DNA from: Candidatus Omnitrophota bacterium
GTDB lineage: Bacteria > Omnitrophota > Gorgyraeia > Aquiviventales > Aquiviventaceae
Length of the DNA stretch: 64,000 bases
Assembly (NCBI GenBank): GCA_016193175.1
Contig: JACPSR010000142.1
Location: 118,332 to 182,331, forward strand
Reading direction: 5' to 3'
Below are positions 5,020 to 24,709 of this stretch, piece by piece. The notes under the pieces are model-generated. The model did not search any database, was not told the origin of the DNA, and saw only the letters and a list, made by a program, of their open reading frames with translations. How positions within the stretch are numbered: the stretch's first letter is position 1; every line of letters begins with the position of its first letter. The translations under genes were made by a program, and so were the position numbers.

Positions 5020-5024
5020 CGGAG

Positions 5025-5062
5025 TGTTATAAAATGTGTCGACTGTTCATATTTTGAACACT
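5025..5062. promoter_or_regulatory. AT-rich imperfect palindrome; candidate promoter/operator of the EPS-type MarR regulator
   Basis: gtgttataaaatgtgtcgactgttcatattttgaacac has arms GTGTTATAAAAT and ATATTTTGAACAC around a central gtcgac. It contains -10-like hexamers TATAAA (5029-5034) and TATTTT (5051-5056). It is the only AT-rich intergenic stretch in the first 15 kb and ends 2 nt before the ATG at 5065. Confidence 0.4.
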
Positions 5063-5064
5063 GA

Positions 5065-5736: not shown

Positions 5737-7586
5737 GCGCACAGGAAGCCCCTCGACCGATCCGCCACGGCCTCTGGGCGTTAGCGCGATTTCTCAGGCC
5801 CTACCGCTGGAGAGTCAGCGGACTCATCGTGTTGGGAATCGTGGCCTCATTTTTGGAGACGGTGGGTATCAGCCTCCTGATTCCTGTCCTCGGAGGGTTA
5901 TCTCCGCACAGCGCCATGAAGGCGATGACGGGACATTTCCTCATGGATGCGCTCAGCCATCCCTTTGCTCAGGTCCCGCCGGCGCAGCGGCTCCAGGTGA
6001 TCGTCACCACCATGCTTGGGCTGATTCTCCTGAAGAATCTCGTCAGCTACGTCCTTGCCGTGTGGACCGAGGGGACGGTGATCAGCGTGGAGCGCGACCT
6101 CAGTCTCCGAGTCTTTGACCGGCTCATGACCGGCACAAGCTACCGGCTGATCGCCCGATGCCCGGTGGGTCAGCTGCTGACGCGGCTCCAGAGCGAACCG
6201 GAGCGAGCGGCCCTCGCCCTCCAGGGCCTCATCCAGATGCTCTCGACTCTGTGCTTGACCACGGCCTATGGCGTCCTGCTGCTCCTGATCTCCTGGCCGC
6301 TCACATTGCTGACGGTGGCGTTGCTCCTCGGACTCTCGTGGCTGCTCCGATGGCCGGCCCATCGTGCCAATGCCATCGGCGGGCGCAGGAGCCAGGCGAT
6401 CGCCGAGGTGTCTCAGGCGGGTGTGGAAGCCCTGTCAGGCATGCGCGTCGTGCGGGCCTTTGGACGCGAAGCCTTTGAGCAGAGCCGCTACCGCGATCGA
6501 TTGCGCTGCGTCAACGCCCTCCAGCTGCGAGGCGCTGGACTGGTGCATCTACCTTTCCCGTTGGCCGAGTCGCTCAGCATGACGGTGCTGGCTGTCTTCC
6601 TGGTGATGGCAGCACCCCGCCTCGTGGTGCAGGGCGGTCAGATGCTTCCGTTGCTGCTCACGTTCCTCTTCGTGTTGTATCGTCTGTTGCCGCGCGTGGC
6701 CTACTTCCATGCGACCTGGGTGATGACTGCGCTGTATATGGCCGGGGCCTCGGCTGTGGCGCGCACCCTTGGCCCTCAAGAAGCTTCAGCTCCAGTGAGC
6801 GGCCAACAACCATTCGATCGGCTGCAGAGTGGTATTCGGTTGGAACACGTCACCTTCACCTACCAGGCCGAGGAAGGTGCTGTCGTGAAGGATCTCTGCC
6901 TCGAGATCCCCGCCGGACGCACCACGGCCTTAGTGGGGGTATCAGGCGTGGGCAAGTCCACGCTCGTGGATCTTCTCCTGCGGTTCTATGACCCGGATAC
7001 GGGACGCATTACAGTGGATGGAATCGATCTGCGTGAGCTGAGTCTGACCCAGTGGCGCGCGGCGATTGGGGTGGTAAACCAGGATACGTTCATGTTTCAC
7101 GCCACGATCCGGGAGAACATCGCCTATGGCAACCCCCACGCCACGCAAGAAGAAATTCGTGAGGCAGCCCGCCGGGCGCATGCGCATGACTTCATTGTGG
7201 CCATGGCACGCGGCTACGACACCATTGTGGGAGACCGCGGGGTGCGGCTCTCCGCGGGGCAGCGGCAGCGACTGGCGATCGCGCGGGCCATCCTGCGCAA
7301 TCCACAGGTATTAATCCTGGATGAAGCCACCAGTGCTTTGGACAGCGCTTCTGAGCGCCACCTTCAGGAGGCGCTGGCGGAATTACGCTCACAACGGACG
7401 GTGCTAGTGATTGCGCATCGTCTCTCGACCGTGGCTGATGCGGATCACATTGCCGTGCTCAAGGAGGGACGGGTGGTGGAGCGCGGGACGCACACGGAGT
7501 TGATGGCTCGCGACGGACACTACGCCGCCTTTTGGCGCCTTCAGTCTCCACCGCGGGAGCCGATGGAACATCCGGTGACGGTCTGA
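5733..7586 (+). CDS. ABC exporter, fused permease + ATPase (MsbA/PglK-type half transporter)
   Basis: 617 aa. The N-terminal ~300 aa are a six-helix TMD. Walker A is GVSGVGKST, the signature is LSAGQRQR, Walker B is LILDEATSALD, and the H-loop is VIAHRLS. ATGA overlap with the upstream stop. Confidence 0.9.
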   Translation: MSAQEAPRPIRHGLWALARFLRPYRWRVSGLIVLGIVASFLETVGISLLIPVLGGLSPHSAMKAMTGHFLMDALSHPFAQVPPAQRLQVIVTTMLGLILLKNLVSYVLAVWTEGTVISVERDLSLRVFDRLMTGTSYRLIARCPVGQLLTRLQSEPERAALALQGLIQMLSTLCLTTAYGVLLLLISWPLTLLTVALLLGLSWLLRWPAHRANAIGGRRSQAIAEVSQAGVEALSGMRVVRAFGREAFEQSRYRDRLRCVNALQLRGAGLVHLPFPLAESLSMTVLAVFLVMAAPRLVVQGGQMLPLLLTFLFVLYRLLPRVAYFHATWVMTALYMAGASAVARTLGPQEASAPVSGQQPFDRLQSGIRLEHVTFTYQAEEGAVVKDLCLEIPAGRTTALVGVSGVGKSTLVDLLLRFYDPDTGRITVDGIDLRELSLTQWRAAIGVVNQDTFMFHATIRENIAYGNPHATQEEIREAARRAHAHDFIVAMARGYDTIVGDRGVRLSAGQRQRLAIARAILRNPQVLILDEATSALDSASERHLQEALAELRSQRTVLVIAHRLSTVADADHIAVLKEGRVVERGTHTELMARDGHYAAFWRLQSPPREPMEHPVTV

Positions 7587-7596
7587 TGGAGGTTCG

Positions 7597-8439
7597 ATGA
7601 TCCCACGCCCTAGCAGTCCCGCCGAAGGCGGGGTCGCACGACGACCAGAGGATTGCAACAGCAGGTGCGACGGCTCCACCAAGGGTGGAGCCCTGCCAGG
7701 GCGTGGGATGAGGACAAGACGATCGCGCCTGGCGATGCAGGTCCTGGTGTTCGCCGGTCTTGGCGCCGGCATGTGTTGGGCGTTGACGATCCCCGCGTTC
7801 ACGCGACAAGGGATCAACTTTCAGGTCTCGACCCATCAGGTTCCCTTGTACGTTAAGGCGGTGGACTTCCTCCATCGACACTACCAGTATGGCCTGCTGG
7901 CTCATGAGATCACACACGGCCTGCCGACGGATCACGAACGCGCGCTCGCCGTTTTCGCGTGGACGCGACAGCGCATCCGCCCCACCCCGGACGGGTGGCC
8001 GGTCATGGATGACCATATCCTGCACATCATCATTCGAGGGCACGGCCTTGAAGATCAGATGGCTGACGTGTTCACGACGTTGTGCACCTACGCCGGAGTA
8101 CCGGCGTTTTGGTACATCGTCAAGCTGCCGGCGGCGAAGCGCAATCTCATCCTCTCCTTTGCTCGAGTGGATGGACGGTGGGCGGTGTTCGATGTCGGGA
8201 ATGGATTTGTTTTCACCGACCGATCAGGAACCTTGGCGAGCAAGGAGGAGTTGGCGGCCGATCCAGAGCTCGTGCGCCTGACGGCAGGGGAGTTCCAGTA
8301 CGGGGGCGGTCCGTATGCGCGGTATTTTTCCAACCTGGCCTCTTTGAAGGCTCCTCGCACGCTTCGGGCGGAACTGCAGATGCCGTGGCGTCGATTCTGG
8401 CATGAGGTTCGCGATGCCCTTGGGTGGGGCCACGCATGA
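7597..8439 (+). CDS. Membrane-anchored transglutaminase-like-fold protein; catalytic residues not evident
   Basis: GGAGG lies 4 nt upstream of ATG 7597. A TM segment (..LAMQVLVFAGLGAGMCWALTIPAF..) is present. The block ..QMADVFTTLCTYAGVPAFWYIV..ILSFARVDGRWAVFDVGNGF.. resembles the transglutaminase core (C..FA..GIPAR / H.W.E....W..FD), but non-Cys and non-His residues occupy the expected positions. Confidence 0.4.
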   Translation: MIPRPSSPAEGGVARRPEDCNSRCDGSTKGGALPGRGMRTRRSRLAMQVLVFAGLGAGMCWALTIPAFTRQGINFQVSTHQVPLYVKAVDFLHRHYQYGLLAHEITHGLPTDHERALAVFAWTRQRIRPTPDGWPVMDDHILHIIIRGHGLEDQMADVFTTLCTYAGVPAFWYIVKLPAAKRNLILSFARVDGRWAVFDVGNGFVFTDRSGTLASKEELAADPELVRLTAGEFQYGGGPYARYFSNLASLKAPRTLRAELQMPWRRFWHEVRDALGWGHA

Positions 8440-9629
8440 CCCCTGGACCACGGCTTGACCTCGTTCCAATTCCCCCATCCACCAATGGGGTGATTCGGGT
8501 TTCTCGGCCGACCTTCTCCAGCGCCGAGGTTCGTGCCGTCGCCAGGGTGTTGGCGTCCGGTGAGGTGGGAGGCAACGGACCGATTGGGCGAGAGGTCGAG
8601 CGGCTGCTGGCCAAACGCCTGAACGCACGGCGAGTGCTCTTGCTGTCGTCCTGTACGCACGCCTATCAAGCTGGGCTACAGGCCCTTGGAATCGGAAAAG
8701 GGGATGAGGTCATCATGCCCAGCTTCAGCTACATGTCGATGGCGAACGCCGTCCTCAACGTCGGGGCGAGACCCGTCTTTGTCGACGTCGAGCCCGATCA
8801 CCTCACGATTGATCCTGTGGCTGCGAATCGTGCGGTCACGCGCCGCACAAAAGCCATCCTTGCTGTCCATTACGCGGGTTATCCTTGTCAGATGGATGCG
8901 CTCTTGGCGCTCAAGCGGCGGTATGAACTTGCGATTCTTGAGGATGCGGCGCAGGCGATCGGGTCGACGTACCGTGGCCGCGCACTGGGGACCATCGGGG
9001 AGTTCGGCTGTTTAAGTTTCCATCAGACGAAGAACATCGTGTGTGGGGAAGGCGGAGCGTTCGTGACCCAACGCGTGGCGTTGGCAGACCGTGTCGATCT
9101 CATTCGAGAAAAGGGGACAAATCGCTCGGCGTTCCTCAGGGGCAAGGTTGGGCGTTACGAGTGGATTGCCCAAGGGGACAACTATGTCCTGTCCGAGTTG
9201 CAGGCTGCGATTCTGCGCGAGCAGCTGTTGAAACTGGACATCCTGACCGCCCGACGGCGTCGCCTCGGACTGCGCTACGTCAGGTGGTTGCGACCACTGG
9301 AACAGCGAGGCCGACTCCGACTGCCACCGTTCAGGCGGCCTGAAGAGATCGCTGGCTATAACTGGCACTTCCTCTATGTCATGGTGGAGCCGCCCGGTGA
9401 TCGTAATCGGGTCATCGCCCAGTTGCGCGCCCGAAACATCGAAGCGACCACACATTTCCCAGCCCTACACTGCTCGCCATTGGGGCGGCAGTTTCATCGA
9501 GGGGGATCGCTGCCTTACGCGGAAGCGGCAGCCAAGCGGCTGATGCGAATCCCGTTGCATGCTGAGTTGAGTGTGCGTGACCAGCAGCGTGTCGTTGAGG
9601 CGCTGCACGAAGTCCTTGAAGGACATTAG
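8436..9629 (+). CDS. DegT/DnrJ/EryC1 aminotransferase, WecE/RffA/SpsC-like (NDP-4-keto-6-deoxyhexose 4-aminotransferase)
   Basis: ..YRGRALGTIGEFGCLSFHQTKNIVCGEGGAF.. and ..IREKGTNRSAFLRGKVGRYEWIAQGDNYVLSELQAAIL.. are collinear with E. coli WecE as I recall it (..SFHETKN.., ..IREKGTNRSQFFRGQVDKYTW..). ATG 8436 forms an ATGA overlap with the upstream stop; the track start 8424 is a GTG. Confidence 0.85.
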   Translation: MTPGPRLDLVPIPPSTNGVIRVSRPTFSSAEVRAVARVLASGEVGGNGPIGREVERLLAKRLNARRVLLLSSCTHAYQAGLQALGIGKGDEVIMPSFSYMSMANAVLNVGARPVFVDVEPDHLTIDPVAANRAVTRRTKAILAVHYAGYPCQMDALLALKRRYELAILEDAAQAIGSTYRGRALGTIGEFGCLSFHQTKNIVCGEGGAFVTQRVALADRVDLIREKGTNRSAFLRGKVGRYEWIAQGDNYVLSELQAAILREQLLKLDILTARRRRLGLRYVRWLRPLEQRGRLRLPPFRRPEEIAGYNWHFLYVMVEPPGDRNRVIAQLRARNIEATTHFPALHCSPLGRQFHRGGSLPYAEAAAKRLMRIPLHAELSVRDQQRVVEALHEVLEGH

Positions 9630-9660: not shown

Positions 9661-10512
9661 ATGAGGCTGCCACGATCCGTCAACCCATCCTCGCGTCGTG
9701 CTCCACCGACGGCCCGTGCGCAGCGGTCGGGCGCGGGGAAGAACCTGTTCTCGTTGGAAGGGCAGGTCGCTCTTGTCACGGGGGCATTAGGGCAGCTGGG
9801 ACGGCAGTTTGTACGCGTCTTAGGGGAGGCTGGCGCCCATGTCATTGTCGCTGATCTCGATGAGGGACGGTGTCAGCAACTGTGCCGGCAGCTTCGTGAG
9901 GAACACCTCAACGCCTCCTGGGCAGCGTTTGACGTGACCGATCCTGAGGCCGTGCGAGCGGCTTTTCAGCGTTTCAGACAAGCGTATGGGGGATGTGATG
10001 TCCTCGTGAACAACGCAGGTATCGCGGTGTTTACCCCGTTTGAGGAACGGGCATTTGAGGAGTTTATGAAGGTGCTGCGCGTGAATGTCGGTGGCATGTT
10101 TCTGTGTACGCAAGCGGCGGTTCCGCTGATGAAGGACCGACCGAGCGGCGGCCGGATTGTGAACATTGGGTCAATGTACGGGGTGGTCAGCGGTGATCCG
10201 CGGATCTACACCGATACCGCGCGGAACACCTCGGAGGTGTACGCGGCATCAAAGGCGGCGGTCATTCAGTTGACACGGTACTGGGCGATTCATCTCGCCC
10301 GGTACCGTATTCGAGTGAACGCCTTGAGCCCTGGGGGAATAGAGAACCAGCAGGGCAGTGATTTCGTGAAACAGTATTCGTTCCGGACCCCGTTGGGACG
10401 GATGGGGCAGGTCACGGAGCTGTCTGGGGCACTGCTGTTTCTGGCCTCTGAGGCGTCCTCCTACGTGACGGGGCATAACCTGCTCGTGGATGGCGGGTGG
10501 ACTGCGTGGTAG
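9661..10512 (+). CDS. Short-chain dehydrogenase/reductase (SDR)
   Basis: Cofactor motif ..ALVTGALGQLG.., plus NNAGI and the catalytic YAASKAAV. The exact start is uncertain because the N-terminal 30 aa are Arg/Pro-rich. Confidence 0.85.
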   Translation: MRLPRSVNPSSRRAPPTARAQRSGAGKNLFSLEGQVALVTGALGQLGRQFVRVLGEAGAHVIVADLDEGRCQQLCRQLREEHLNASWAAFDVTDPEAVRAAFQRFRQAYGGCDVLVNNAGIAVFTPFEERAFEEFMKVLRVNVGGMFLCTQAAVPLMKDRPSGGRIVNIGSMYGVVSGDPRIYTDTARNTSEVYAASKAAVIQLTRYWAIHLARYRIRVNALSPGGIENQQGSDFVKQYSFRTPLGRMGQVTELSGALLFLASEASSYVTGHNLLVDGGWTAW

Positions 10513-10521
10513 CGGGGACAC

Positions 10522-11370
10522 ATGGTCATGAGGAGCACCATGGACATCGACGGTCGACGAGTCGGTGAAACCCACCCAACGTTCATTGTGGCCGAGATTG
10601 GGATTAATCATAACGGTGAGATGCGGACCGCAGAACGCTTGATCGAATCGGCGGCAACGGCAGGGGCGGATGCGGTCAAGTTCCAGACCTATGTGACGGA
10701 GCAGCGGGTTCCTCGGTCCAACCCATTCTTCGAGTTGCTGAAACAATGCGAGCTGCCGTTTCCGCAGCAGGCCGAGCTCAAAGCCTTCGCGGAACATGTG
10801 GGAGTCTTGTTCTTCTCAACGCCGTTTGATACTGAGAGTGTTGAGTTCCTGGCTAGCCTGAATGTCTCGGTCTATAAGATTGCCTCATTTGATATCGTCA
10901 ACCTGCGCCTGCTCCGCAAGGCGGCTTCGACTGGGAAGCCGGTCATCGTCTCGCGGGGAATGGCGACGTTCGAAGAGATCAACCGAGCTGTGGCCGTGTT
11001 GGAGGAAGCGAGCGCCCCCTACGCCTTGCTCCACTGCATCTCTGCGTACCCGACGCCTGAAGATCAAGCGAACCTGAACGCGATTCGAACCTTGGTGGAG
11101 CACTACCAGTGCCCAGTCGGGTATTCTGACCACACGTTAGGGATCGAGGTTCCGGTGTATGCGGTGGCGGTTGGCGCCCACATCATTGAAAAACATTTCA
11201 CCTTAGACCGGAGCATGCAGGGGCCCGACCATTCGCTGTCCGCGAACCCCACACAACTTGCGGAGATGATTCAACGCATTCGGAGCCTTGAGCGGGCCCT
11301 GGGTCATGCCCAGTTGTGTGTCGTTGAAGCGGAGCAGGGGACTCTGATCTACCGGAGGCCAACCAACTAA
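10522..11370 (+). CDS. NeuB/SpsE-type nonulosonic-acid synthase, TIM-barrel part only (C-terminal SAF domain missing)
   Basis: ..TFIVAEIGINHNGEMRTAERLIESAATAGADAVKFQTY.., ..YSDHTLGIEVPVYAVAVGAHIIEKHFTLDRSMQGPDHSLS.. The protein ends at ..EAEQGTLIYRRPTN (282 aa), where the SAF/antifreeze-like domain normally begins. An alternative start is ATG 10540. Confidence 0.85.
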   Translation: MVMRSTMDIDGRRVGETHPTFIVAEIGINHNGEMRTAERLIESAATAGADAVKFQTYVTEQRVPRSNPFFELLKQCELPFPQQAELKAFAEHVGVLFFSTPFDTESVEFLASLNVSVYKIASFDIVNLRLLRKAASTGKPVIVSRGMATFEEINRAVAVLEEASAPYALLHCISAYPTPEDQANLNAIRTLVEHYQCPVGYSDHTLGIEVPVYAVAVGAHIIEKHFTLDRSMQGPDHSLSANPTQLAEMIQRIRSLERALGHAQLCVVEAEQGTLIYRRPTN

Positions 11371-11373
11371 GGC

Positions 11374-13092
11374 ATGGAACAGCGGATTCTCTTTCGGTGT
11401 GACGGTGGCCGAATTCCTGAGATCGGGACGGGACACGTGAGACGTTGCCTGTTGCTGGCCGACTATCACTGGCGGCACTACCGAAGCGTGGCACGGTTCC
11501 TGATGCGTCAGGCGTCAGACGGCGTGAACTTGGTCCTGGAGAGCGGTCTCCCCGTCGAGGTACAGACCTTTGCCACGGATGGGGATGAGGATCGCGCATT
11601 CACGGAGGCGCTGGATCAGTTTCATCCAGACGTCTGCGTCTTCGATTGCCTCAACGTCGCTGAGGAGTTGTTGGCGCTCTGCCATAGTCGTGGGACGGTG
11701 ACGGTTTCCCTGGACGATGTCGGAGCCGGCCTGACCCGGGCGGACATTGTGGTGAACGCCATCGTCGAGCATCCGGGGACCTGCTATAGCGGGCCGGAGT
11801 ATCTCATCCTGCCAGAGACTCCACCGGCCAGTCCACCTCAACGTGGCGGTCATGGACAAGGCGTGTCGTTGTTTATTTCCGCCGGGGGCTATGACCACCG
11901 CCGTCTGGCTGAGCGGCTCCTGCAGGTCCTGAAGGGCATTTCCGAGGTGAAGCGCATCCACCTGATCGCTTCGGATGCTGAAGTCTCACAGCGATGTCAG
12001 GGTTTGGTGGCAGAAGACACCACGCATCCAGCGATCACCATTCAGCACGCAGTGCCCAACATCGGGACGATTATGGCCCAATGTGACCTTGCCGTGGTTT
12101 CTGGAGGGTTAACCCTGTTTGAGGCGATGCGCTTGGGGGTGCCAAGCGTGGTGGTCGCGCAATATGCGCATCAGGCAACCACGGCAGCCGTGTATGCGTC
12201 GCGGGAATCAGTTGTCAGCGTTGGATTGCCCGACCACACCTTTGAAACCAAGGTGCGCCGGGCAGCCGAACAGCTCATTCAGGCCCCTGAAATCCGGTAT
12301 CGACTGGGTCGGAATGCTCAGCGGCTTGTGGACGGCAGGGGCCTTAAGCGGGTCGCAGAACTCATGAGAATCTGCGAGTTCCTCGAGTGGGATACCACCT
12401 TTTTCGGCAGACGCATCGCGGTCCTGAAGCCCCTGAGACTGACCGAGCGGATTCTGAACTATGCGCTTGAGCGCTGTCGGCAGTGGGGCGTCGAGTGCTT
12501 GTACTACCAATGCGACTGTCACCATGCCCCGAGCGTGCGCCTGGCCGAACAGCATGGATTTCATTTCGTGGATATGCGGCTCACGTTTGAATACGATCTG
12601 ACGCGCCCGGTTGTGCCCTTCAACGGGCTGCCACACGGGATCGAGATGCGGCCCTGTCGTCCTGATGATGTCCCGGCCCTGAAGGCGATCGCCAGCGACA
12701 GCTATCTGGACTCTCGCTATTACTTTGACCAGCGTTTTGCGCGCGAACGGTGCACCGCGTTCTACACCGAGTGGATTGAGAAGTGTGCGAACGGCTTTGT
12801 CGATCACGTGTTGGTTGCCGAGCATCAGGGACAAGCTGTGGGCTACGTGACGTGCAGGTGCGCCACACCCTATCTTGGACATATCGATCTCATCGGCGTT
12901 CACCCATCCATGCGCAATCGGCGGATTGGTCGAGCCCTGGTTGACGCAGCACTCCGGTGGTTCCTTGAGCGAGATTTTGAGCGCGTGGAGGTCGCGACTC
13001 AGGGACGTAATTACGCTGCACAGCGTCTGTATCAGCGGTGTGGATTCGTGAGCAGACAGACACGCTTATGGTACCACAAGTGGTTGACGTGA
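11374..13092 (+). CDS. Fusion of a PseG/SpsG-like UDP-sugar hydrolase (GT28-C fold) with a WecD/RffC-like GNAT acetyltransferase
   Basis: The N-terminus MEQRILFRCDGGRIPEIGTGHVRRCLLLA.. is PseG-like. The C-terminal ~230 aa begin ..WDTTFFGRRIA.. and contain ..FYTEWIEKCANGFVDHVLVA.. and ..VEVATQGRNYAAQRLYQRCGFVSRQTRLWYHKW. These are collinear with E. coli WecD as I recall it (..[20 protein letters not shown].., ..[32 protein letters not shown]). Confidence 0.75.
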   Translation: MEQRILFRCDGGRIPEIGTGHVRRCLLLADYHWRHYRSVARFLMRQASDGVNLVLESGLPVEVQTFATDGDEDRAFTEALDQFHPDVCVFDCLNVAEELLALCHSRGTVTVSLDDVGAGLTRADIVVNAIVEHPGTCYSGPEYLILPETPPASPPQRGGHGQGVSLFISAGGYDHRRLAERLLQVLKGISEVKRIHLIASDAEVSQRCQGLVAEDTTHPAITIQHAVPNIGTIMAQCDLAVVSGGLTLFEAMRLGVPSVVVAQYAHQATTAAVYASRESVVSVGLPDHTFETKVRRAAEQLIQAPEIRYRLGRNAQRLVDGRGLKRVAELMRICEFLEWDTTFFGRRIAVLKPLRLTERILNYALERCRQWGVECLYYQCDCHHAPSVRLAEQHGFHFVDMRLTFEYDLTRPVVPFNGLPHGIEMRPCRPDDVPALKAIASDSYLDSRYYFDQRFARERCTAFYTEWIEKCANGFVDHVLVAEHQGQAVGYVTCRCATPYLGHIDLIGVHPSMRNRRIGRALVDAALRWFLERDFERVEVATQGRNYAAQRLYQRCGFVSRQTRLWYHKWLT

Positions 13093-13126
13093 CTCCGAGG
13101 ACCCGTTGTCGGGTCGTGGACGCCTG

Positions 13127-13906
13127 ATGCCATCCCACAAGGTCGTGGGTATTATCCAAGCCCGGATGGGCTCCAGCCGTTTTCCAGGGAAAACGCTGTA
13201 CCCGGTCAATGGTCAACCCATGTTGTCCTGGATGCTGACGCGCGTCGCCCAGGCCCGTCGGCTCGACCACTGGCTGGTGGCGACCACTGACCAGGTAGCC
13301 GATGAGGCCATTGTTTCGTATTGTCAGGACCACAGGGTGCCAGTCTTCCGTGGCCACGAACTGGATGTCTTGGACCGATATTACCGGGCCGCTCGGGACG
13401 CCGGAGCTGGTGTTGTGGTGCGCTTGACCGCGGACTGCCCGCTGATTGATCCTCGGGTCATCGATCAGGTCATTGAGACCTTTCAGCTCGGCACCTCTGA
13501 CTATGTGTCGAACGTCACACCCCTTCCTTCCTCATTTCCCGATGGGATGGATGTTGAGGTGTTCTCGATGGCAGCGTTGAACCGGGCGTGGCGCGACGCG
13601 GTCAAGCCGTCAGACCGTGAGCATGTGACGTTTTACATGTGGCAGCACCCCGAGACGTTTCAACTCTATCGCGTAGAGCACGAACCGGATTGGTCGAGGT
13701 ACCGGCTCACGGTTGATTCCCCTCAAGACCTGGAAGTGATCGAAGCGATCATGAAGGCGTTCAGTCCTCAGCACCTCACGACCAGCATGGAGGAGTTGAT
13801 TGCGTATTTAGACCAGCATGAGGAGTTGCGAAGGCGCAATCATGGGATCGCACGCGATGCCGGGTGGCAGGCAGCGTATCAGCGCGACCGTGAGATGGGG
13901 TTCTAG
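13127..13906 (+). CDS. Cytidylyltransferase, SpsF/acylneuraminate cytidylyltransferase family (CMP-nonulosonate synthetase-like)
   Basis: ..VVGIIQARMGSSRFPGKTLYPVNGQPMLSWMLTRV.. and ..VVRLTADCPLIDP.. The start was moved to ATG 13127; the track start 13106 is a TTG. Confidence 0.85.
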   Translation: MPSHKVVGIIQARMGSSRFPGKTLYPVNGQPMLSWMLTRVAQARRLDHWLVATTDQVADEAIVSYCQDHRVPVFRGHELDVLDRYYRAARDAGAGVVVRLTADCPLIDPRVIDQVIETFQLGTSDYVSNVTPLPSSFPDGMDVEVFSMAALNRAWRDAVKPSDREHVTFYMWQHPETFQLYRVEHEPDWSRYRLTVDSPQDLEVIEAIMKAFSPQHLTTSMEELIAYLDQHEELRRRNHGIARDAGWQAAYQRDREMGF

Positions 13907-13909
13907 CGA

Positions 13910-15244
13910 ATGACGCGTCCCCCCTCACGCCAGCGGACTCAGTCGGAAGCTCTATGGGACCGGGCGAAGAAAGTGATTCCAGCCGGCACACAGACCTTTA
14001 GCAAAGGGCCTGGGCAATTTGTCAACGGGGTTGCACCCAAGTATCTGCGGCGGGGCGAAGGGGCGCACGTATGGGATGTTGACGGGAACGAATTTCTCGA
14101 CTACGGGCTGGCGCTCGGCCCCGTGATTCTTGGCTACGCGTACCCCCGGGTGAATGAGGCCATCATGGCGCAGCTGCGTGACGGAATTAGCTTTACGCTC
14201 ATGCATCCGCTGGAGGTTGAGCTGTCAGAGTTGCTCACGTCAATCATCCCGTGCGCGGAGATGGTGCGCTTTGGCAAGAACGGCTCTGATGCGACGGCCG
14301 CAGCCGTTCGGCTCGCCCGGGCCTTCACCGGTCGGGAACGGGTGGCCTGTTGCGGCTACCACGGATGGCAAGATTGGTACATCGGTTCGACATCGAGAAG
14401 GGCCGGAGTGCCCCGTGCGGTGCAAGCCCTGACCCATCCGTTTCAGTACAACGATCTCGATTCGCTCAGCGCGATTTTTACCACGTATCCAAAGGAGATG
14501 GCTGCGGTGATCCTAGAGCCGACGACCGTAGTGGAACCAGCGCAGGGATTTCTTGAGGGGGTTCGGGATTTGGCGCACCAGCACGGCGCCCTGGTCATTT
14601 TCGATGAGGTGATCACCGGGTTCCGCCTGGCCCTCGGCGGGGCGCAGGAATTCTTTGGCGTGACCCCTGATCTGGCCACGTTTGGCAAGGCGATGGCCAA
14701 CGGCATGCCATGTTCGGCGTTGGTTGGTCGGGCCGACGTGATGCGCCTGTTGGACGAGGTCTTTGTCTCGTTCACGTTCGCTGGGGAAACGCTGTCCTTG
14801 GCGGCTGCGCTGGCGACCATTCGCGAGTTGCAAACCCAACCCGTCCTGCCACATCTCTGGGAGTTGGGAAGGCGACTGAAGACGGGGTACACGGAGTTGG
14901 TCGCTGCACGAAGCCTCCAGGCCATGACGCGATGCAGCGGGTATCCTTGTTGGCCCACCTTGGCATTCGAGGCATTCCGCGGGATCCCGGCGTCGACGCT
15001 TCAAAGCCTGTTCTTCCAGGAAGTCGTGAAGCGGGGCATTTTGACTCGGCCTGGCATGTTCCTTTGCTTTGCGCACACGAGGGAAGACATTGAGCGGACC
15101 CTCCAGGTCTATGGGGAAGCGCTCGATGTCCTGGCCCGTGCCTGTGAGCGCGGCACAGCGGGGGAATGGCTCGAGGGGGATATCATCGAGCCGGTGATCA
15201 GGATGGAGACTTCCCCTCAAACGGTCGTGCATGGAATGTCTTGA
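13910..15244 (+). CDS. Class-III PLP aminotransferase (glutamate-1-semialdehyde aminomutase-like)
   Basis: ..GAHVWDVDGNEFLDYGLALGPVILGYAYP.., ..GSDATAAAVRLARAFTGR.., ..VIFDEVITGFRLALGGAQEFFGVTPDLATFGKAMANG.. (PLP lysine in FGKA). Confidence 0.85.
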   Translation: MTRPPSRQRTQSEALWDRAKKVIPAGTQTFSKGPGQFVNGVAPKYLRRGEGAHVWDVDGNEFLDYGLALGPVILGYAYPRVNEAIMAQLRDGISFTLMHPLEVELSELLTSIIPCAEMVRFGKNGSDATAAAVRLARAFTGRERVACCGYHGWQDWYIGSTSRRAGVPRAVQALTHPFQYNDLDSLSAIFTTYPKEMAAVILEPTTVVEPAQGFLEGVRDLAHQHGALVIFDEVITGFRLALGGAQEFFGVTPDLATFGKAMANGMPCSALVGRADVMRLLDEVFVSFTFAGETLSLAAALATIRELQTQPVLPHLWELGRRLKTGYTELVAARSLQAMTRCSGYPCWPTLAFEAFRGIPASTLQSLFFQEVVKRGILTRPGMFLCFAHTREDIERTLQVYGEALDVLARACERGTAGEWLEGDIIEPVIRMETSPQTVVHGMS

Positions 15245-15271
15245 AAGCCGGAGGAACCGGGAGAGCTGGGG

Positions 15272-15619
15272 TACCGCACGGACGAAACCAGCCGGGAAGG
15301 GCCGGATCACGGGTTCTCCATGACCCTGGATGCGTGGCGGGAGATGGTCGACCGCACGCGGGAGCTAGAGCGTGCCCTCGGCCATCCAGAAAAGGTGGTG
15401 GCGGCACACGAGCAAGAGACGGCGATCCTCCAGCGGCGCTGCCTGCGGACGGCTCGCAATCTCACGGAGGGGACGCTCCTCATGCGCGACGCGATCGAGG
15501 TTCTTCGGCCGGCGCCTGGCGATGCGATTCTGCCCCACCGGATCGACCAGGTGGTGAGCCGGCGTCTCCGACGAGCGATGCGACGAGGGGAGCATTTCAC
15601 CTGGAGCGTGCTGGAGTGA
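15272..15619 (+). pseudogene. Orphan NeuB C-terminal fragment (linker helix + SAF domain); either a relic of a second synthase gene or a stand-alone SAF protein (ORF 15320..15619)
   Basis: The same frame continues directly after the aminotransferase stop and reads ..SREGPDHGFSMTLDAWREMVDRTRELERALGHPEKVVAAHEQETAILQRRCLRTARNLTEGTLLMRDAIEVLRPAPGDAILP.. This aligns with ..QGPDHSLSANPTQLAEMIQRIRSLERALGHAQLCVVEAEQGTLIYRR of the 10522 gene and then extends through a SAF-like domain. No TIM-barrel part lies upstream. Confidence 0.55.
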
Positions 15620-15621
15620 GG

Positions 15622-16266
15622 ATGGCGCGGCAGGCGAGGCGCGTGTCGCTGGTCCAAGGTCGGGGAAAGGACGCGACTGGTGTCGGAGAGCTGCGGGTCC
15701 GTCGACGGCTGCGAGGTCGCTTGCTGGTGGGATCACGGCTGTGCCTGCGACCTCTGACAGAGGCTGACGTGACCAAGGAGTATCTGGGGTGGCTGAACGA
15801 TTCAGAAGTCACGCGGTTCCTCGAGGTCGGCCGGCAGCGCTCCACGCACCAGACGGTGCGCAGGTACCTCACGCGGTTCCACGGCAGCCGAACGGACTTC
15901 ATCTTTGCGATGATCGATCGGAAGACCGGACGCCACATCGGCAACGTCACCGTCAATCGGATACATCGAGTTGATTGCACGGCCGATACAGGCCTGATGA
16001 TCGGACGGAAGGACCTGTGGGGAAAAGGATATGCCTATGAGGCCTGGAGTCTTGTGCTGGCGCATGCGTTCCGGGATCTTGGGCTGCGCAAGGTGGTAGC
16101 GACGGTGGTGGTGGATAACGTCCGGAGCCTCCGGGCCCTGAAGAAGCTTGGTTTTCACGTTGAAGGGGTCCTCCGCCAAGAGCGGTTCGTCAACGGGACC
16201 TACAAGGATGTCGTGCGGCTCGGCCTGTTCAGCCATGAGTTCGAGCCTCTGAGGGGCGGAAGATGA
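15622..16266 (+). CDS. GNAT N-acetyltransferase (RimJ/RimL-like)
   Basis: ..LRPLTEADVTKEYLGWLNDSEVTRFLE.., ..IGNVTVNRIH..., ..GRKDLWGKGYAYEAWSLVLAHAFRDLGLRKVVATVVVDNVRSLRALKKLGFHVEGVLR.. The track ORF 15166..16266 has an implausible Arg/Gly/Pro-rich N-terminal extension, so the start was set at ATG 15622, 2 nt after the SAF-ORF stop. Confidence 0.8.
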   Translation: MARQARRVSLVQGRGKDATGVGELRVRRRLRGRLLVGSRLCLRPLTEADVTKEYLGWLNDSEVTRFLEVGRQRSTHQTVRRYLTRFHGSRTDFIFAMIDRKTGRHIGNVTVNRIHRVDCTADTGLMIGRKDLWGKGYAYEAWSLVLAHAFRDLGLRKVVATVVVDNVRSLRALKKLGFHVEGVLRQERFVNGTYKDVVRLGLFSHEFEPLRGGR

Positions 16267-16445
16267 GCACGGAGCGATTGCGGGTCATGGTGGGTCGGGG
16301 CTCATCCTGCCCCATTGACATGAACGTGTTTCCAGCCGAGCAAAACAGACAAGCCTACTTTGAAGCCCAGATTACCCATGCGGATCGGAAGTTTCGATAC
16401 TGTAAAGTGTCGGTGGACGATGTCTGGAAATATCGGGCGACCTGA
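16263..16445 (+). CDS. Small hypothetical protein (60 aa)
   Basis: ATGA overlap with the GNAT stop suggests translational coupling. No motif was recognised, and the ORF lies at the edge of a decayed region. Confidence 0.25.
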   Translation: MSTERLRVMVGRGSSCPIDMNVFPAEQNRQAYFEAQITHADRKFRYCKVSVDDVWKYRAT

Positions 16446-16493
16446 TCCTCGACTCGTGCAGGGCGCGATTCGAACGGGGAACACCGAGGGACG

Positions 16494-17136
16494 ATGAAAG
16501 GCGCATTCATCATCGAGCGGTCGAGCTACTACCGCGTCCTGGCGCCGATTATTGACGAGGCGTTGCGTAGAGGATGGCACGTGGAGTGCTGGCATGATTA
16601 CAGTCAGCCCAGGTCAGGAACCAAGGGGTACCAATTTCCGGCGGTCGAGTCAGCCCCAACATTCTTGAACGGCCGTCCGGTCTTCAAACCGTATGTTGGG
16701 GTCATGGAGCCTGCGCGACATCGAGGCGTTTATCGATGCATTCGATGAACCCTATGCTGGGGCATCGACGTTTTTGAATGGAGTACGTGTGCGGCTGCGG
16801 AGAGCCACTGCAGAATCGCTCGACGGAGCTTTCCATCCTTTCCAGACTGGTCTTGTCTATCGCAAGAGCCAAGACCGCCTGTTCATTGCTGCCACAGAGG
16901 GCTCATTGGTGGTCGGAGAAGTCTTGAGCGACGAGGGCACCAATATCTTGCAGCAGGTACGTGTGGGGGATCGGTTCTACAGCCCCTCGGAGTATCTCGA
17001 AGGCGCCAAGCGAATCCGGGTCTTTTATCGCGCAACAGGACTCACGACCGAAGGGCGTAGTGCGTTGGGTACCACACGCGCGAAGCATCCGCGACGTGGC
17101 TTGACGAAGGCTGGGGCCGTGGGCTCCCGGACCTGA
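16494..17136 (+). pseudogene. Formyltransferase-like gene remnant: an N-terminal beta-alpha-beta fragment and a C-terminal formyltransferase domain in different frames
   Basis: ORF 16693..17136 reads ..WSLRDIEAFIDAFDEPYAGASTFLNGVRVRLRRA...GLVYRKSQDRLFIAATEGSLVVGEV.., which matches the C-terminal domain pattern of Fmt-like formyltransferases (..iRA...PyPGA.t...g..v.i..a..). ORF 16494..16748 (MKGAFIIERSSYYRVLAPIIDEALRRGWHVECW..) is a Rossmann-type N-terminus in another frame. The catalytic core (HxSLLPxxRG region) is absent. Confidence 0.45.
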
Positions 17137-17140
17137 TCAG

Positions 17141-18439
17141 ATGCAACGACGGATTGCCTTTTACATGCCACGCGTGAACCACCTGCGGGCGGTTGCCCCG
17201 GTGATCGATTACCTGGTTCGGCACTGCGCGGAGACCTTTAGGGTCACGGTCCTCTACCCGGGATGGAAGACGTCGAAGCTGGCCCTGCAACCGAAGGCTG
17301 AGGATTTCAGTAGCCTGTTTGGGAACCGGGTTGCTGTGGAACGGTTGGAGGACCCCTTCGCGCTTCTCCGGCTCATCAGGACAGGCTCCATCGATGCCCT
17401 CGTGAACTTACTGACACAGGTGACGGACGTCGACCCGCGGCTGCTTGCGACGTTGCGCGCTGAATCCCGCAAGGTCGGGACGAGATGGATCGCGCTGCCG
17501 TACGTATTTGCGCAGTCCGAATTTGTCCTCAAGGAGCCTGAAGCAGCACGCGACATGTGGGATCTGATTTGTGTCGAAGGTTCTTGTTCAGTGGAATACA
17601 TCGAATCACATCTGAACGGTGCCTCCCGCGCGCTCACACAGGCACTGATGAAACGAGTGGTAATCATCGGCTACCCAGAGCTTGACGGGGTTGGTCTGTT
17701 GGCAGATGCGCAGACGATTCGACACAAATACAGCTTGCCTGCTGACCGGCCCCTGATCTTCGTGGCGACCGCACCGACATTCTACCCATTGGTGAACCGC
17801 TCAGTAACCATGTACGGACTCGAGCGGCGCTTCCGCGCCGAATGGTGTCTGTCGCTCCGCGACCTCGCGGGCTATCTCGCCTCCCTGCACCACCCTGTCC
17901 TAACGCCATATCGCCGGTACCTGTCGGCGCTGCGCAGGTTTGCGGATGCGAACAACGCGTGCCTCGTGGCGAAGACAAGAGCGAAGCATCGTGACCCAAG
18001 CTATCTGACAGACTATGTGGATTATGTGTTTGGCGATCAGTCGTTCTTCCCGTTCACCACGCTGGAATTACTGCGAGTCTCGAAATTGTATGTGGGGTTC
18101 TACAGCTCGGCGGTCATCGAAGCCCTCGCGCTGGGGGTGTATCCGATCACCATGCTCTTTATGCCCATCGAGCGCGTCGAACCCTCTCCTGTCCGTCGGG
18201 CGTGGTTTGAGTTTTTCCACCGCGGGGAGGGCAGCCTGTGGAACACGCGGGGGGTGAGCGAGCTCGTGGACGGCACAAATCGGTCAGGGGCAGCGTGGCT
18301 CAAGCGATTTGTGCGCTCGAGCCTTGAGCAGTACGCGGTGGATGGGTCTCGGCAGGCGCAGTTGCTTGATAAGTTCATTAGCTACCGTGGCAGGAGTTGC
18401 GAACGGTTTGTCGAGGTGCTGGCGTCCTGCTGGTCATGA
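17141..18439 (+). CDS. Hypothetical transferase, GT-B-like (TagB/TagF or capsule-synthesis-like pattern)
   Basis: 432 aa. ..RVVIIGYPELDGV..RPLIFVATAPTF.. and ..ELLRVSKLYVGFYSSAVIEALALGVYPITMLF.. resemble the C-terminal pattern of CDP-glycerol glycerophosphotransferase-type enzymes (..sD.lItDySS...e...l..P.i..). This is weak, by-eye evidence only. Confidence 0.35.
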   Translation: MQRRIAFYMPRVNHLRAVAPVIDYLVRHCAETFRVTVLYPGWKTSKLALQPKAEDFSSLFGNRVAVERLEDPFALLRLIRTGSIDALVNLLTQVTDVDPRLLATLRAESRKVGTRWIALPYVFAQSEFVLKEPEAARDMWDLICVEGSCSVEYIESHLNGASRALTQALMKRVVIIGYPELDGVGLLADAQTIRHKYSLPADRPLIFVATAPTFYPLVNRSVTMYGLERRFRAEWCLSLRDLAGYLASLHHPVLTPYRRYLSALRRFADANNACLVAKTRAKHRDPSYLTDYVDYVFGDQSFFPFTTLELLRVSKLYVGFYSSAVIEALALGVYPITMLFMPIERVEPSPVRRAWFEFFHRGEGSLWNTRGVSELVDGTNRSGAAWLKRFVRSSLEQYAVDGSRQAQLLDKFISYRGRSCERFVEVLASCWS

Positions 18440-19731
18440 CACGTCACAAGCCGGGTGCCGAAGCAGGAATGAGAGAACCTGGAAGCCTGAGCCATCGGCG
18501 CAAGCTTGCGGTCCGGCTGCTCGCCATCGTTGGTTTCGTGTGGAGTCTTGAGGTCTGCGAGGGGATCTGGGTCCGTCGCCAGACCTATGCGGCGGCCGCA
18601 AGAAGGTTGGGTGTTGCCTACGATACACGCCTGCCGTTTGAGGTAGTGCGTGAGCTGAGACAGCGGGGCCTCGATGCCATTCCCGTATTCAATCGGCCAT
18701 GGTCCACGAACATCCACCACCCTGAGGACGGCGTGTTTGCCTTGGGTGGGTGGGCGAACAAACTGACGGTCTTGTGTAATGAGAATGGGTATTACGCCAT
18801 GTACGAGAGCGACCTTTATGGCTTTAATAACCCGCCAGACGCCTGGAGGGGGGGCCGCCCGGACGTCGTGCTCCTTGGCGATTCCTTCGTCCAGGGTTCC
18901 TGTGTCTGGCCGGACCAGACCATTGCGGCTCGGCTGCGCGAGGCGTCGTTGCAGACGCTCAACCTCGGCTACGGGGGGAATGGTCCGCTTGGGATGCTGG
19001 CGACTCTGATGGAGTACGCTGCGCTGTTGAGGCCGCACATTGTGCTTTGGTGCTACTACGAAGGGAACGACATCGCCGATCTGAATACTGAGAAACAGTA
19101 TCCGTATCTCCGGAACATGGCGTTCCTGAAGTCGGAAGGTCGTCAAGATTTGCGCCTGTGGCGGGCCGAGGTAGATCAGCTCTACAGCCTGCGGGCGACT
19201 GGCGGAGTGCTGTCGGCTAGGCAGGAATTCGTGAAGGTGCATGGCCCCGAGGCCATCTCATGGATCGATTGGATCATGTACCGTCGGCTGCATGGCTGGC
19301 TGAAGGAGGACTCGCTCGGGCTCTTTGCCATTCAGTGTCTCAAGCTGAGTCACTTGCGCACCCGCGTTGCTACCGTGTTGCGGTTGTTTGATGCAACTCG
19401 CCAGTCTCAAGAGGTCCTAGATGAGGAGCTGTTTCGCCACGTCTTGGCCGCGACGAAGGAAGTGATCAGCTCCTGGGATGGACAGATGTACGTGGTGTAC
19501 TTGCCTGAATGGCGCCGCTACCGCCTGATGGGTCGGCCGAACCGGTATCGTGATCACATGCTGCAGCTGCTGCGCAGTCTTGAGATTCCTGTCATTGACA
19601 TCGATGAAGCGTTTCGAGCTCATGGGGATCCCCTCAACCTGTTTCCGTTTCGACTCCAGGGCCATTACAATGAGCAGGGCTATCGGGTTGTGGCGCAGGC
19701 CATCCTGGAGAGGATCGCCGTTCGCCACTAG
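18436..19731 (+). CDS. Membrane-anchored SGNH/GDSL hydrolase-family protein (glycan O-acyl esterase/transferase-like)
   Basis: TM segment ..LAVRLLAIVGFVWSL.. Block I is VVLLGDSFVQG, block II LGYGGNGP, block III YYEGNDI, and block V ..QGHYNEQGY.. ATG 18436 forms an ATGA overlap with the upstream stop. Confidence 0.7.
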   Translation: MTRHKPGAEAGMREPGSLSHRRKLAVRLLAIVGFVWSLEVCEGIWVRRQTYAAAARRLGVAYDTRLPFEVVRELRQRGLDAIPVFNRPWSTNIHHPEDGVFALGGWANKLTVLCNENGYYAMYESDLYGFNNPPDAWRGGRPDVVLLGDSFVQGSCVWPDQTIAARLREASLQTLNLGYGGNGPLGMLATLMEYAALLRPHIVLWCYYEGNDIADLNTEKQYPYLRNMAFLKSEGRQDLRLWRAEVDQLYSLRATGGVLSARQEFVKVHGPEAISWIDWIMYRRLHGWLKEDSLGLFAIQCLKLSHLRTRVATVLRLFDATRQSQEVLDEELFRHVLAATKEVISSWDGQMYVVYLPEWRRYRLMGRPNRYRDHMLQLLRSLEIPVIDIDEAFRAHGDPLNLFPFRLQGHYNEQGYRVVAQAILERIAVRH

Positions 19732-20111
19732 CGCCGCTGGCAGGGGATGTTCCACGACACACGATCCTCGAATGCATTAGAACTCGTGCGTAGTGATGAG
19801 AGGGTGGGCTGGTTTCCCCCTTTCCCCCAAGTGACTGATGTGAGACCAAGTGCCGATTGGGTCCTGAGGTTCACCAACGCAGCGATATTGCGCACGCGCA
19901 GGCCATAGGCTCTGACCCGATGCCGGTAGACCTGAGCGAGGACTTGGTACTTCTTCATCCGGGCAATGACGTGCTCGATTCGGTAGAAGACGAGCAGTAG
20001 GAGCAGCAGCGGTGCCAACCGAGTGGCGAGCGTCGTGAACTGCTCCACGGGAAGACCTGTGAGCCGCCGCAGCTGTTGCGGTTTCCCGCTGAGACGCTGA
20101 AAACGGAGCAT
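19728..20111 (-). mobile_element. Internally deleted IS5/DDE_Tnp_4-type transposase relic
   Basis: The 127-aa ORF joins a transposase N-terminal HTH segment (MLRFQRLSGKPQQLRRLTGLPVEQFTTLATRLAP) directly to the extreme C-terminal DDE-family segment (..YRIEHVIARMKKYQVLAQVYRHRVRAYGLRVRNIAALVNLR..). The ~200-aa catalytic core is missing. The remainder of the ORF (19728 to about 19850) is read-through. It is one of only two minus-strand elements in the window. Confidence 0.6.
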
Positions 20112-20203
20112 GGCCCTCTCTCCCTTCTCGTTCCGGCCACGACTCCCACAGCGTTCATGTGACCAGGCATGTCAACTACGCACCAGTTCTATTGAAGCAG
20201 GAG

Positions 20204-21481
20204 ATGGAGAACATGAAGCTGTTAAAGGACGTCGAGCTGTATCGGGACGTGAGGATCGGCAACATTGTGTATCGAGGGAGCGAAGACAGCCCGGGCGGCG
20301 AGGTCGGGTATATCTTCGACCTGTTTCCAGTCGGCTACTTTGAGGGCAAGACCGTGCTGGATCTCGGTTCGGCCGGCGGGGCCATCTGCTTTGAAGCCGC
20401 GAGGCGGGGATGCGCCATGACAGTCGGGCTAGAACTCCAGAAGGAACGGATCGCGGGTGCTCGGCGGATCCAACGGCTTGCTGGCATGACTCGCGTGAGG
20501 TTTATCCGGCGCGATCTCTACGAGTTTCTCGAGCGGGGTGCCGGACGGTTCGATGTGATTTTCGCCCTGAACCTTTTGCATCACCTGAGCAACCCGCTGC
20601 CCCTGTTGCAAAAGATCTGCCGGTCCAGCAAGGAATACATCTGCCTCGAGGGGCCTTGGGACCTGACGGTGGCGCCGTTCCGAGAGTATTGCCCGCGGCT
20701 GGCCGCGATGGAGCGCGGCACGACATTCGCGACGGTTGGGGACTACCTGCGGTACTTCGCGCTCATGCACTTCTCCGTGGTAGGACAAGCCCCCTCCGCC
20801 GCGGTCAAGGAGTTTTATCTATCAGACCGCAGCCCACGGCGGGTCTCCCTGCTGCGGTATGCGCGACGCCTGAAAGATCGGGACACGCGGCTTTGGGGGA
20901 TGCGGCTGTTCCAAGGGTACCGGGATGGCTGCGACCGGTATGTCAGGGCGGATCCGTACTTTCTGGCATGCCACGATGTCCAGGAGCTGCTGGCCTCCCT
21001 CAAGTCGCGGTTTAACTCTGGCAGATGGAATTTCATCTTGGTGGGGCCTCGGGCTTCTGGAAAGAGCGTCATTTATGAGAACCTTCCTGCGCTCCACAAG
21101 CCCACCTACCATTCGAAGATTTTCAAGTTCAGCAACTGGTTGGGTATGAAGGGCCTGAGGCGACACCTCCATCCGACCAGTCAGTGTCACAGCAAGTTCG
21201 CCGAGGTGCTGCTCAGTACGATGGATGATGGGACAGCTCATGTCTCGCAAGAGGAGTTCCTGCAAGTCATCAAGGGGCGGCCTGTCGTGTGTGTCGTGTG
21301 CTACTGCGGGTTTGAGGAACACTTCGAGCGGCTGTATGCACGGGAAGTCCGTGATTTCTCGACGGAATATCACGATGTATATTTCGACCTCTCCTTACGG
21401 TTTGACTATCTCCGGTGGGTTGAGGCGTTCAGGCAGCAGGGAATCCCCTATGTTATCGCCGAACTGGCGCCGATGCACTAA
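20204..21481 (+). CDS. Fusion of a class-I SAM methyltransferase with a P-loop (kinase/sulfotransferase-like) domain
   Basis: N-terminus: ..GKTVLDLGSAGGAICFEAARRGCAMTVGLE.. and ..FDVIFALNLLHHL.. C-terminal ~170 aa: Walker-A-like ..FILVGPRASGKSVIYENL.. Start at ATG 20204 or 20213; the track start 20159 is less likely. Confidence 0.65.
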   Translation: MENMKLLKDVELYRDVRIGNIVYRGSEDSPGGEVGYIFDLFPVGYFEGKTVLDLGSAGGAICFEAARRGCAMTVGLELQKERIAGARRIQRLAGMTRVRFIRRDLYEFLERGAGRFDVIFALNLLHHLSNPLPLLQKICRSSKEYICLEGPWDLTVAPFREYCPRLAAMERGTTFATVGDYLRYFALMHFSVVGQAPSAAVKEFYLSDRSPRRVSLLRYARRLKDRDTRLWGMRLFQGYRDGCDRYVRADPYFLACHDVQELLASLKSRFNSGRWNFILVGPRASGKSVIYENLPALHKPTYHSKIFKFSNWLGMKGLRRHLHPTSQCHSKFAEVLLSTMDDGTAHVSQEEFLQVIKGRPVVCVVCYCGFEEHFERLYAREVRDFSTEYHDVYFDLSLRFDYLRWVEAFRQQGIPYVIAELAPMH

Positions 21482-21487
21482 CGAAGG

Positions 21488-24700: not shown

Positions 24701-24709
24701 GGAGCCACC

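Follow-up and report, generated by a model that had tools for sequence, protein, structure and literature searches.

The window analysed here (64,000 nucleotides, positions 118,332 to 182,331 of contig JACPSR010000142.1 of a Candidatus Omnitrophota bacterium) contains a conserved sugar-biosynthesis cassette with two separate pieces of NeuB type: a gene encoding a NeuB-family synthase which shows only the catalytic barrel, and a fragment about 4 kb downstream, directly behind the last gene of the cassette, which shows the C-terminus of NeuB with its SAF domain. The best explanation, to which a probability of about 75% is given, is that the barrel-only synthase works alone and that the fragment is a recent remnant of a second, canonical neuB at the cassette border. 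The genes of the cassette and the fragment are distributed as follows:

8424..9629, plus strand: DegT/WecE-like sugar aminotransferase, first gene of the cassette (Pfam DegT_DnrJ_EryC1, E 1.4e-95).
9661..10512, plus strand: short-chain dehydrogenase/reductase, SDR (Pfam adh_short_C2, E 1.9e-54).
10522..11370, likely start 10540, plus strand: predicted barrel-only (SAF-less) NeuB-family nonulosonic-acid synthase (Pfam NeuB, homologues, 6NCS).
11374..13092, plus strand: PseG-like nucleotide-sugar hydrolase (TIGR03590, residues 3-272) fused to a WecD-like GNAT (PRK10975, residues 332-569).
13106..13906, plus strand: SpsF-like cytidylyltransferase (Pfam CTP_transf_3, E 7.5e-32).
13910..15244, plus strand: class-III aminotransferase (PRK06209-like, here AT3), complete, right border of the cassette (Pfam Aminotran_3, E 1.3e-47; NF004856, residues 8-434).
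15245..15277, plus strand: junction from the AT3 stop to the first securely neuB-homologous codon, itself not securely homologous to either neuB or AT3 relatives.
15278..15619, plus strand: apparent 3' remnant of a canonical neuB with the last barrel helix, linker and SAF (TIGR03569, positions 225-328 of 329; Pfam SAF), including a 99-aa open reading frame (ORF) from ATG 15320.

The synthase ORF 10522..11370 encodes 282 amino acids, has the C-terminus ..EAEQGTLIYRRPTN (..IYRRPTN), and the ATG of the PseG-like gene lies at 11374, just past its stop at 11370. Pfam shows a complete NeuB domain (1-239 of 241, E 9.1e-85) and no SAF domain, and TIGR03569 covers only positions 1-270 of 329, which confirms that a NeuB-like ORF without SAF is present at this position. 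Since SAF is absent and the scores are below the equivalog cut-offs (312.1 versus 399.65 for TIGR03569 and 267.9 versus 340.25 for PseI), the protein is predicted as a member of the NeuB family only and is not assignable as an N-acetylneuraminic acid (Neu5Ac) or pseudaminic acid (Pse) synthase. The likelier true start is ATG 10540, which has GAGGAG 8 nt upstream and gives a protein of 276 aa, in agreement with the 276-aa gene calls of Logan. Alignment to the Neisseria meningitidis NeuB (NmNeuB, 1XUU) shows that E25, K53, Q55, K129, S132, Y186, S213, H215, H236 and D247 are all identical in the synthase; we take these positions, after Gunawan 2005, to be the metal ligands and phosphoenolpyruvate (PEP)-binding residues. 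Two positions differ, E134 being replaced by Asp and N184 by Ser, and both changes are also present in the solved structure 6NCS.

The original prediction described this gene as a synthase lacking its SAF domain, that is, as a local anomaly, and this description has to be replaced. A homologue search was performed against 5.8 billion proteins and the best 120 matches were examined: all 120 are 269-306 aa long and contain PF03102 only, and they belong to Omnitrophica, Desulfobacteraceae, Acidobacteria, Zixibacteria, Actinomycetota and Promethearchaeota. One genome per species was then scanned, and six-frame ORFs were searched with a hidden Markov model (HMM) of the NeuB C-terminus plus SAF. In the best 18 genome loci and in the five loci of the closest relatives, NeuB ends at the same profile position as the window synthase (HMM 1-78), and full NeuB plus SAF is present in more distant genome loci. 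A SAF-only HMM, which scores 89.5 bits on the window fragment and was used at maximum sensitivity, shows no NeuB-type SAF near the barrel-only neuB in any of these 23 related loci, up to 10 kb (best E 3.1). The closest relatives show 69% (L088/89), 65% (L090) and 60% (L092) identity to the window synthase. The closest solved structure is PDB 6NCS, a SAF-less "N-acetylneuraminic acid synthetase" of 290 aa (E 4.9e-71), in which residues 15-285 align to residues 9-279 of the synthase. Both belong to a subfamily of about 280 aa that shows the NeuB TIM barrel alone and ends just past the start of the E-Q-x-x-x-x-R-R linker. A phylogenomic survey of 2021 found SAF in only 70% of 13,941 bacterial NeuB (about 30% are without it), described whole SAF-less NeuB branches in environmental bacteria, and stated that the effect of SAF absence "remains to be investigated" (PMC8208679). 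The window synthase shows no essential difference from 6NCS or from the SAF-less branches of that survey, and in the literature searched no substrate or activity was found for any member of the barrel-only subfamily. Because the best homologues and the cassette relatives all stop at the same point without SAF, the 282-aa synthase is, judged by homology, not truncated but an ordinary member of a natural, widespread and already described barrel-only NeuB subfamily.

The canonical NeuB, PseI and LegI enzymes (N. meningitidis NeuB 1XUZ, Campylobacter jejuni PseI 8H2C, Bacillus subtilis SpsE 1VLI) share the barrel and the metal and PEP residues with the 282-aa protein; however, they contain barrel and SAF in one chain of about 350 aa and form a domain-swapped dimer, whereas the window barrel protein would never have had a SAF. 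The fragment resembles canonical NeuB in its last barrel helix, its linker and its SAF with the equivalent of R314, but it has lost about 225 codons of the barrel, and both window pieces are below the NCBIfam equivalog cut-offs.

The barrel-only neuB is part of a shared cassette that contains DegT, usually SDR, barrel-only NeuB, the PseG-like protein (often with a WecD-like GNAT), the SpsF-like protein and the PRK06209-type class-III aminotransferase. This cassette is present in loci L008-L022, L031, L038, L048 and L088-L092, from groups that include Zixibacteria, Planctomycetes, SAR86, Pelagibacteraceae, Omnitrophota and Desulfobacterales; the literature searched contained no biochemical study of it. 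The DegT protein passes NCBIfam NF008687 (dTDP-4-amino-4,6-dideoxygalactose transaminase) with 387.7 bits versus a cut-off of 375, and the synteny of its gene extends to L088-L092 and to the majority of the SAF-less genome loci. SDR is located immediately upstream of the barrel-only neuB in 15 of the 23 related loci, and L090 does not have it. Orthologues of the PseG-GNAT fusion, of 570-576 aa, come after neuB in L088, L090 and L092; the WecD-like GNAT half of the window protein gives E 3.9e-31. In L088 (7164-8051) and L090 (12564-13439) a methyltransferase gene is located between PseG-GNAT and SpsF, which is absent at window 13092-13106. The related loci also have the SpsF-like gene in their cassette; in L092 it forms a fusion with AT3, and in L117 and L151 the fusion is GFO–SpsF–AT3. 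The AT3 gene of the window is complete and its C-terminus aligns to those of its relatives through LEGDIIEPVIR. The gene directly after AT3 encodes a radical-SAM protein in L088/89, PFTS_polysacc in L090 and, after a 1-nt gap, a GNAT in L092. Because the closest relatives run from AT3 straight into these different genes, the cassette ends at the AT3 stop, with a variable right flank that differs in every relative.

The fragment lies at this border. From the AT3 stop at 15244 (TGA 15242-15244) the same frame is open on to 15619, reading ..TDETSREGPDHGFSMTLDAWREMV.., and the ATG of the following GNAT gene is at 15622; the NeuB C-terminus with SAF that had been described in the AT3 frame after 15244 is therefore confirmed. 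The fragment scores E 2.4e-16 with TIGR03569 and E 1.9e-7 with Pfam SAF, and begins within 11 codons of the cassette border at the AT3 stop. A protein alignment suggested neuB homology upstream of 15278 ("PG…LG.R", with two in-frame deletions), to which the DNA alignment gave no support. The barrel part of the fragment overlaps with the synthase; the overlap had been put at about 55 homologous but non-identical residues, and the measured one is 53 residues with 45% identity. At the DNA level the two pieces have little in common: their best match is a single 46-nt stretch of 72% identity (E 0.001). On these two values, 45% protein identity in the overlap and barely similar DNA, the fragment can be assigned to a different neuB paralogue, as the original prediction had proposed in place of a simple split. 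The same values led to the rejection of the overlap as a duplicated target site. By tblastn, no other NeuB-like sequence, including the missing 5' part of the second neuB, is present in the 64 kb.

The sole canonical start in the fragment is ATG 15320, which gives 99 aa and is annotated in the Candidatus Omnitrophica metagenome-assembled genome (MAG) as HYY59_07645, hypothetical protein. This ATG corresponds to an internal Met ("FSMTP") kept in roughly 80-90% of the canonical relatives, and it is thus read here not as a new start: the 99-aa ORF would owe its existence solely to a Met that the family keeps inside its proteins. Directly before this ATG, 14 codons (TDETSREGPDHGFS, barrel, with the GPDH motif) agree with those of relatives in 10-13 of 14 positions (71-93%), and the 99 codons downstream show 53-61% identity. 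Since a barrel piece that is untranslatable from any standard start is still so well preserved, this indicates a recent truncation, and with a recent truncation the open frame is not evidence of selection. The fragment shows mismatches at 4 of 41 strongly conserved columns, which is in the top 10% of the family and a weak, non-significant signal, and 10.8-13.3 lineage-specific changes versus 8.9-11.6 in its nearest neighbours, a difference that is not significant. As for the Arg of SAF which contacts the substrate, a conservation check had been proposed, and it is conserved: the Arg of VLRPAPG aligns to NmNeuB R314. Its equivalent is also present in 99% of the relatives of the fragment, so its retention shows absence of decay only. 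No Shine-Dalgarno (SD)-like motif is found within 20 nt of ATG 15320, and there is one at -23; because many bona fide genes of this genome are also without SD, the comparison is uninformative. No promoter or terminator was detected in a scan of the fragment's surroundings.

Outside this population the exact 99-aa product was not found, and no other protein exceeds 62% identity to it. A metagenome scan gave 80 nearest relatives with 48-62% identity; wherever the contig is long enough to tell, each match forms the 3' end of a complete canonical neuB, and no free SAF gene is among them. A family of stand-alone SAF proteins was considered from short matches of 129-213 aa on long contigs, and was rejected in the contexts checked, where these are frameshift-split neuB of error-rich long-read assemblies or contig-end partials. 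P0086, P0054, P0018 and P0116 are on long contigs of error-rich assemblies with many split genes; the first three are directly behind a NeuB N-terminal piece, and for P0116 no such piece was seen. P0004 is a contig-end partial. The ENA assemblies ERZ250394xx-ERZ250396xx (L006, L007, L093 and L095) show many frameshift-split genes on long contigs, in which neuB, Polysacc_synt_2 and glycosyltransferases are each cut into two or three ORFs; this is how spurious short "NeuB C-terminus + SAF" entries come into the protein collection. It had been suggested that orthologous loci might carry an intact second neuB between the aminotransferase and the GNAT; none was found. No sister strain shows an intact neuB beside the same AT3 or GNAT, AT3 being known in one context only, and the 214-aa GNAT product (15622..16266) is not on record in the protein records. 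In the loci L117 and L151 the GFO–SpsF–AT3 fusion precedes an RmlD-like gene, behind which lies a canonical NeuB(SAF) belonging to the same subfamily as the fragment.

Two further features are located to the right of the fragment:

15622..16266, plus strand: GNAT gene (Pfam Acetyltransf_3, 1-138 of 138, E 1.3e-30).
16693..17136, plus strand: Formyl_trans_C-only ORF, apparently a domain-level gene fragment (Pfam Formyl_trans_C, E 5.6e-7).

The GNAT (15736-16245) and the Formyl_trans_C ORF (16702-17079) match residues 358-527 and 226-352, respectively, of one 530-aa formyltransferase–GNAT (FMT-GNAT) fusion, which is located downstream of the same cassette in L010 (10451-12043) and L017 (10532-12127), whose hosts are a Planctomycetes MAG and a Desulfobacteraceae MAG. 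Compared with this fusion, the order in the window is swapped and the catalytic N-domain is absent. The two ORFs are thus best read as rearranged parts of one fusion gene, and the neighbourhood supports rearrangement. The GNAT was also considered as an orthologue of the post-AT3 GNAT of L092, and this was rejected on its 27% identity versus 54-60% for the cassette genes. Window 16267-16692 shows no convincing gene, only short ORFs (60 and 84 aa) that match no family and lack coding-type GC periodicity, and may be decayed gene debris; the 84-aa ORF is weakly like the N-terminus of the 432-aa protein at 17141 (E 0.004). No insertion sequence (IS) element, repeat or tRNA is found at the junction in the region examined. 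Single-run Logan contigs break at two fixed points, five contigs on the left ending at 15878 and four on the right starting at 16219. In the assembly graphs the 340-bp core of the GNAT (15879-16218) therefore acts like a repeat or a bubble, which means a second allele or genomic context in the community. A large surface-glycan locus surrounds the cassette (476-8439 and 17141-25828) and contains genes encoding a TPR protein, an AsnB-type amidotransferase, an HTH protein, an MsbA-like ABC exporter, a transglutaminase-like protein, a GDSL/SGNH protein, methyltransferases and GT4 glycosyltransferases. Gene order on its left side agrees in part with L092 and L088.

In the preferred explanation, the two NeuB pieces, 4 kb apart, are unrelated to each other. 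The product of 10522/10540..11370 would be the PEP-condensing nonulosonic-acid synthase of the conserved cassette and would need no SAF, as must also be the case in its relatives. By its domain content, the barrel-only NeuB would condense PEP with a 6-deoxy-amino-hexose that the WecE-like aminotransferase and WecD-like acetyltransferase would produce and the PseG-like hydrolase would then free. The condensation product would be activated by SpsF as a CMP-sugar, and SDR and the class-III aminotransferase would modify the product. The DegT and WecD-like matches hint at a 4-acetamido-4,6-dideoxyhexose as precursor rather than the usual 2,4-diacetamido sugar. The fragment 15278..15619 would represent the 3'-terminal third of another neuB, of the canonical type with SAF, left stranded where the cassette ends on the right, and two origins can be proposed. 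One is a deletion that began immediately behind the AT3 stop and reached to around codon 225 of a neuB lying downstream, which is plausible because L117 and L151 carry SpsF-AT3, the RmlD-like gene and NeuB(SAF) in this order. The other is that a lower-GC cassette (57-61%) may have recombined into a resident neuB of higher GC, the fragment having 67%. The truncation being recent, the remnant would still be open and family-like. Remnants at the recombination borders of other surface-glycan loci (O-antigen, capsule, flagellin-glycosylation) likewise show a truncated gene abutting a conserved cassette edge with a variable flank; the window resembles them in its adjoining domain-level fragments and in the GC difference between fragment and cassette. 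Unlike such remnants, that of the window is unusually clean, with no stop or frameshift. The fragment is most likely without functional partnership to the synthase, and the SAF-less relatives and the remnant features support the second of the two options originally offered, in which the fragment is a relic and the synthase functions by itself. The observation is confirmed, but what it describes is ordinary.

Several points weigh against this explanation. The fragment shows no stop or frameshift over its 113 homologous codons and reaches its native stop, it has coding-type GC periodicity (GC1/2/3 = 0.76/0.48/0.78), it keeps the R314 equivalent and it shows no significant rate acceleration versus its nearest neighbours, all of which is equally expected for a maintained small gene. 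It is located 75 nt after AT3 in a co-directional operon and is probably transcribed, it carries a gene annotation (HYY59_07645), and it does not have a close relative usable for dN/dS. For the synthase, its presumed pathway role and substrate are read from domain content.

A maintained gene could have a role away from the barrel. The SAF ORF could be kept as a small sugar-binding or regulatory protein, or AT3 and SAF could be joined by read-through of TGA 15242-15244, which the intact frame, without evident rate acceleration and shared with AT3 from the stop onward, and the occurrence of SAF domains among other proteins related to carbohydrates (Iyer et al., cited in PMC8208679) would allow. 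However, frame sharing with AT3 has a one-in-three chance, AT3 has a complete C-terminus that finishes as in its relatives, neither an AT3-SAF fusion nor a free SAF gene is seen in any relative, and no recoding signal was seen, although none was searched for. This explanation is improbable.

Quite improbable is also the first option of the original prediction, in which a 99-aa linker and SAF protein translated from ATG 15320 would cap the barrel in trans and give it an R314-type Arg, restoring or changing its specificity. The ORF is intact and coding-like with this Arg kept, it has the same operon direction as the synthase, and there is a precedent in NmNeuB, whose antifreeze-protein (AFP)-like domain is indispensable and acts upon the other subunit (PMC11339185). 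Nevertheless, of the observation proposed as a refutation, namely related genomes that have the same synthase with no SAF partner and make nonulosonic acids normally, the genomic half is found: such genomes carry the same synthase of about 280 aa and its cassette, and in 23 of 23 related loci there is no SAF partner, so none is needed by the barrel-only subfamily. Moreover, the fragment belongs to another NeuB subfamily (45% identity in the overlap), no stand-alone SAF gene is found among its relatives (the 80 nearest are ends of full-length neuB and the short matches checked are split or cut), its 5' limit is set by the cassette border with a useless barrel piece (GPDH motif) upstream of the start, and the nearest SD-like motif is at -23, outside the 20 nt before the ATG, though this is also the case for many real genes here. 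There is no support for trans-complementation in the evidence. A narrower form, in which the recently stranded SAF of a canonical NeuB would be translated as a 99-aa protein and dock in trans on the SAF-less synthase, changing its sugar specificity, is very improbable; if true, it would capture a domain in the act of being recruited through the fragmentation of a gene in a glycan locus.

An assembly or binning artefact, in which the AT3-fragment junction would be a chimeric join of two genomes in the MAG, might be suspected from the repeated breaks of the per-run assemblies nearby, at 15878 and 16219, but these breaks are inside the GNAT gene and away from the fragment borders, and it is essentially refuted because independent single-run Logan assemblies (L001-L005 and L176) cross AT3, fragment and GNAT at 100% identity, L177 also spanning AT3 and fragment up to its end inside the latter at 15511.

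For the annotation of this family, most short database proteins of the type "NeuB C-terminus + SAF" are artefacts of frameshifts or contig ends. A SAF-less NeuB of about 280 aa is not a truncated protein, and annotators should neither flag it as a pseudogene nor seek a missing partner. Canonical NeuB needs its SAF, and the cassette with the barrel-only NeuB is very widespread in uncultured phyla.

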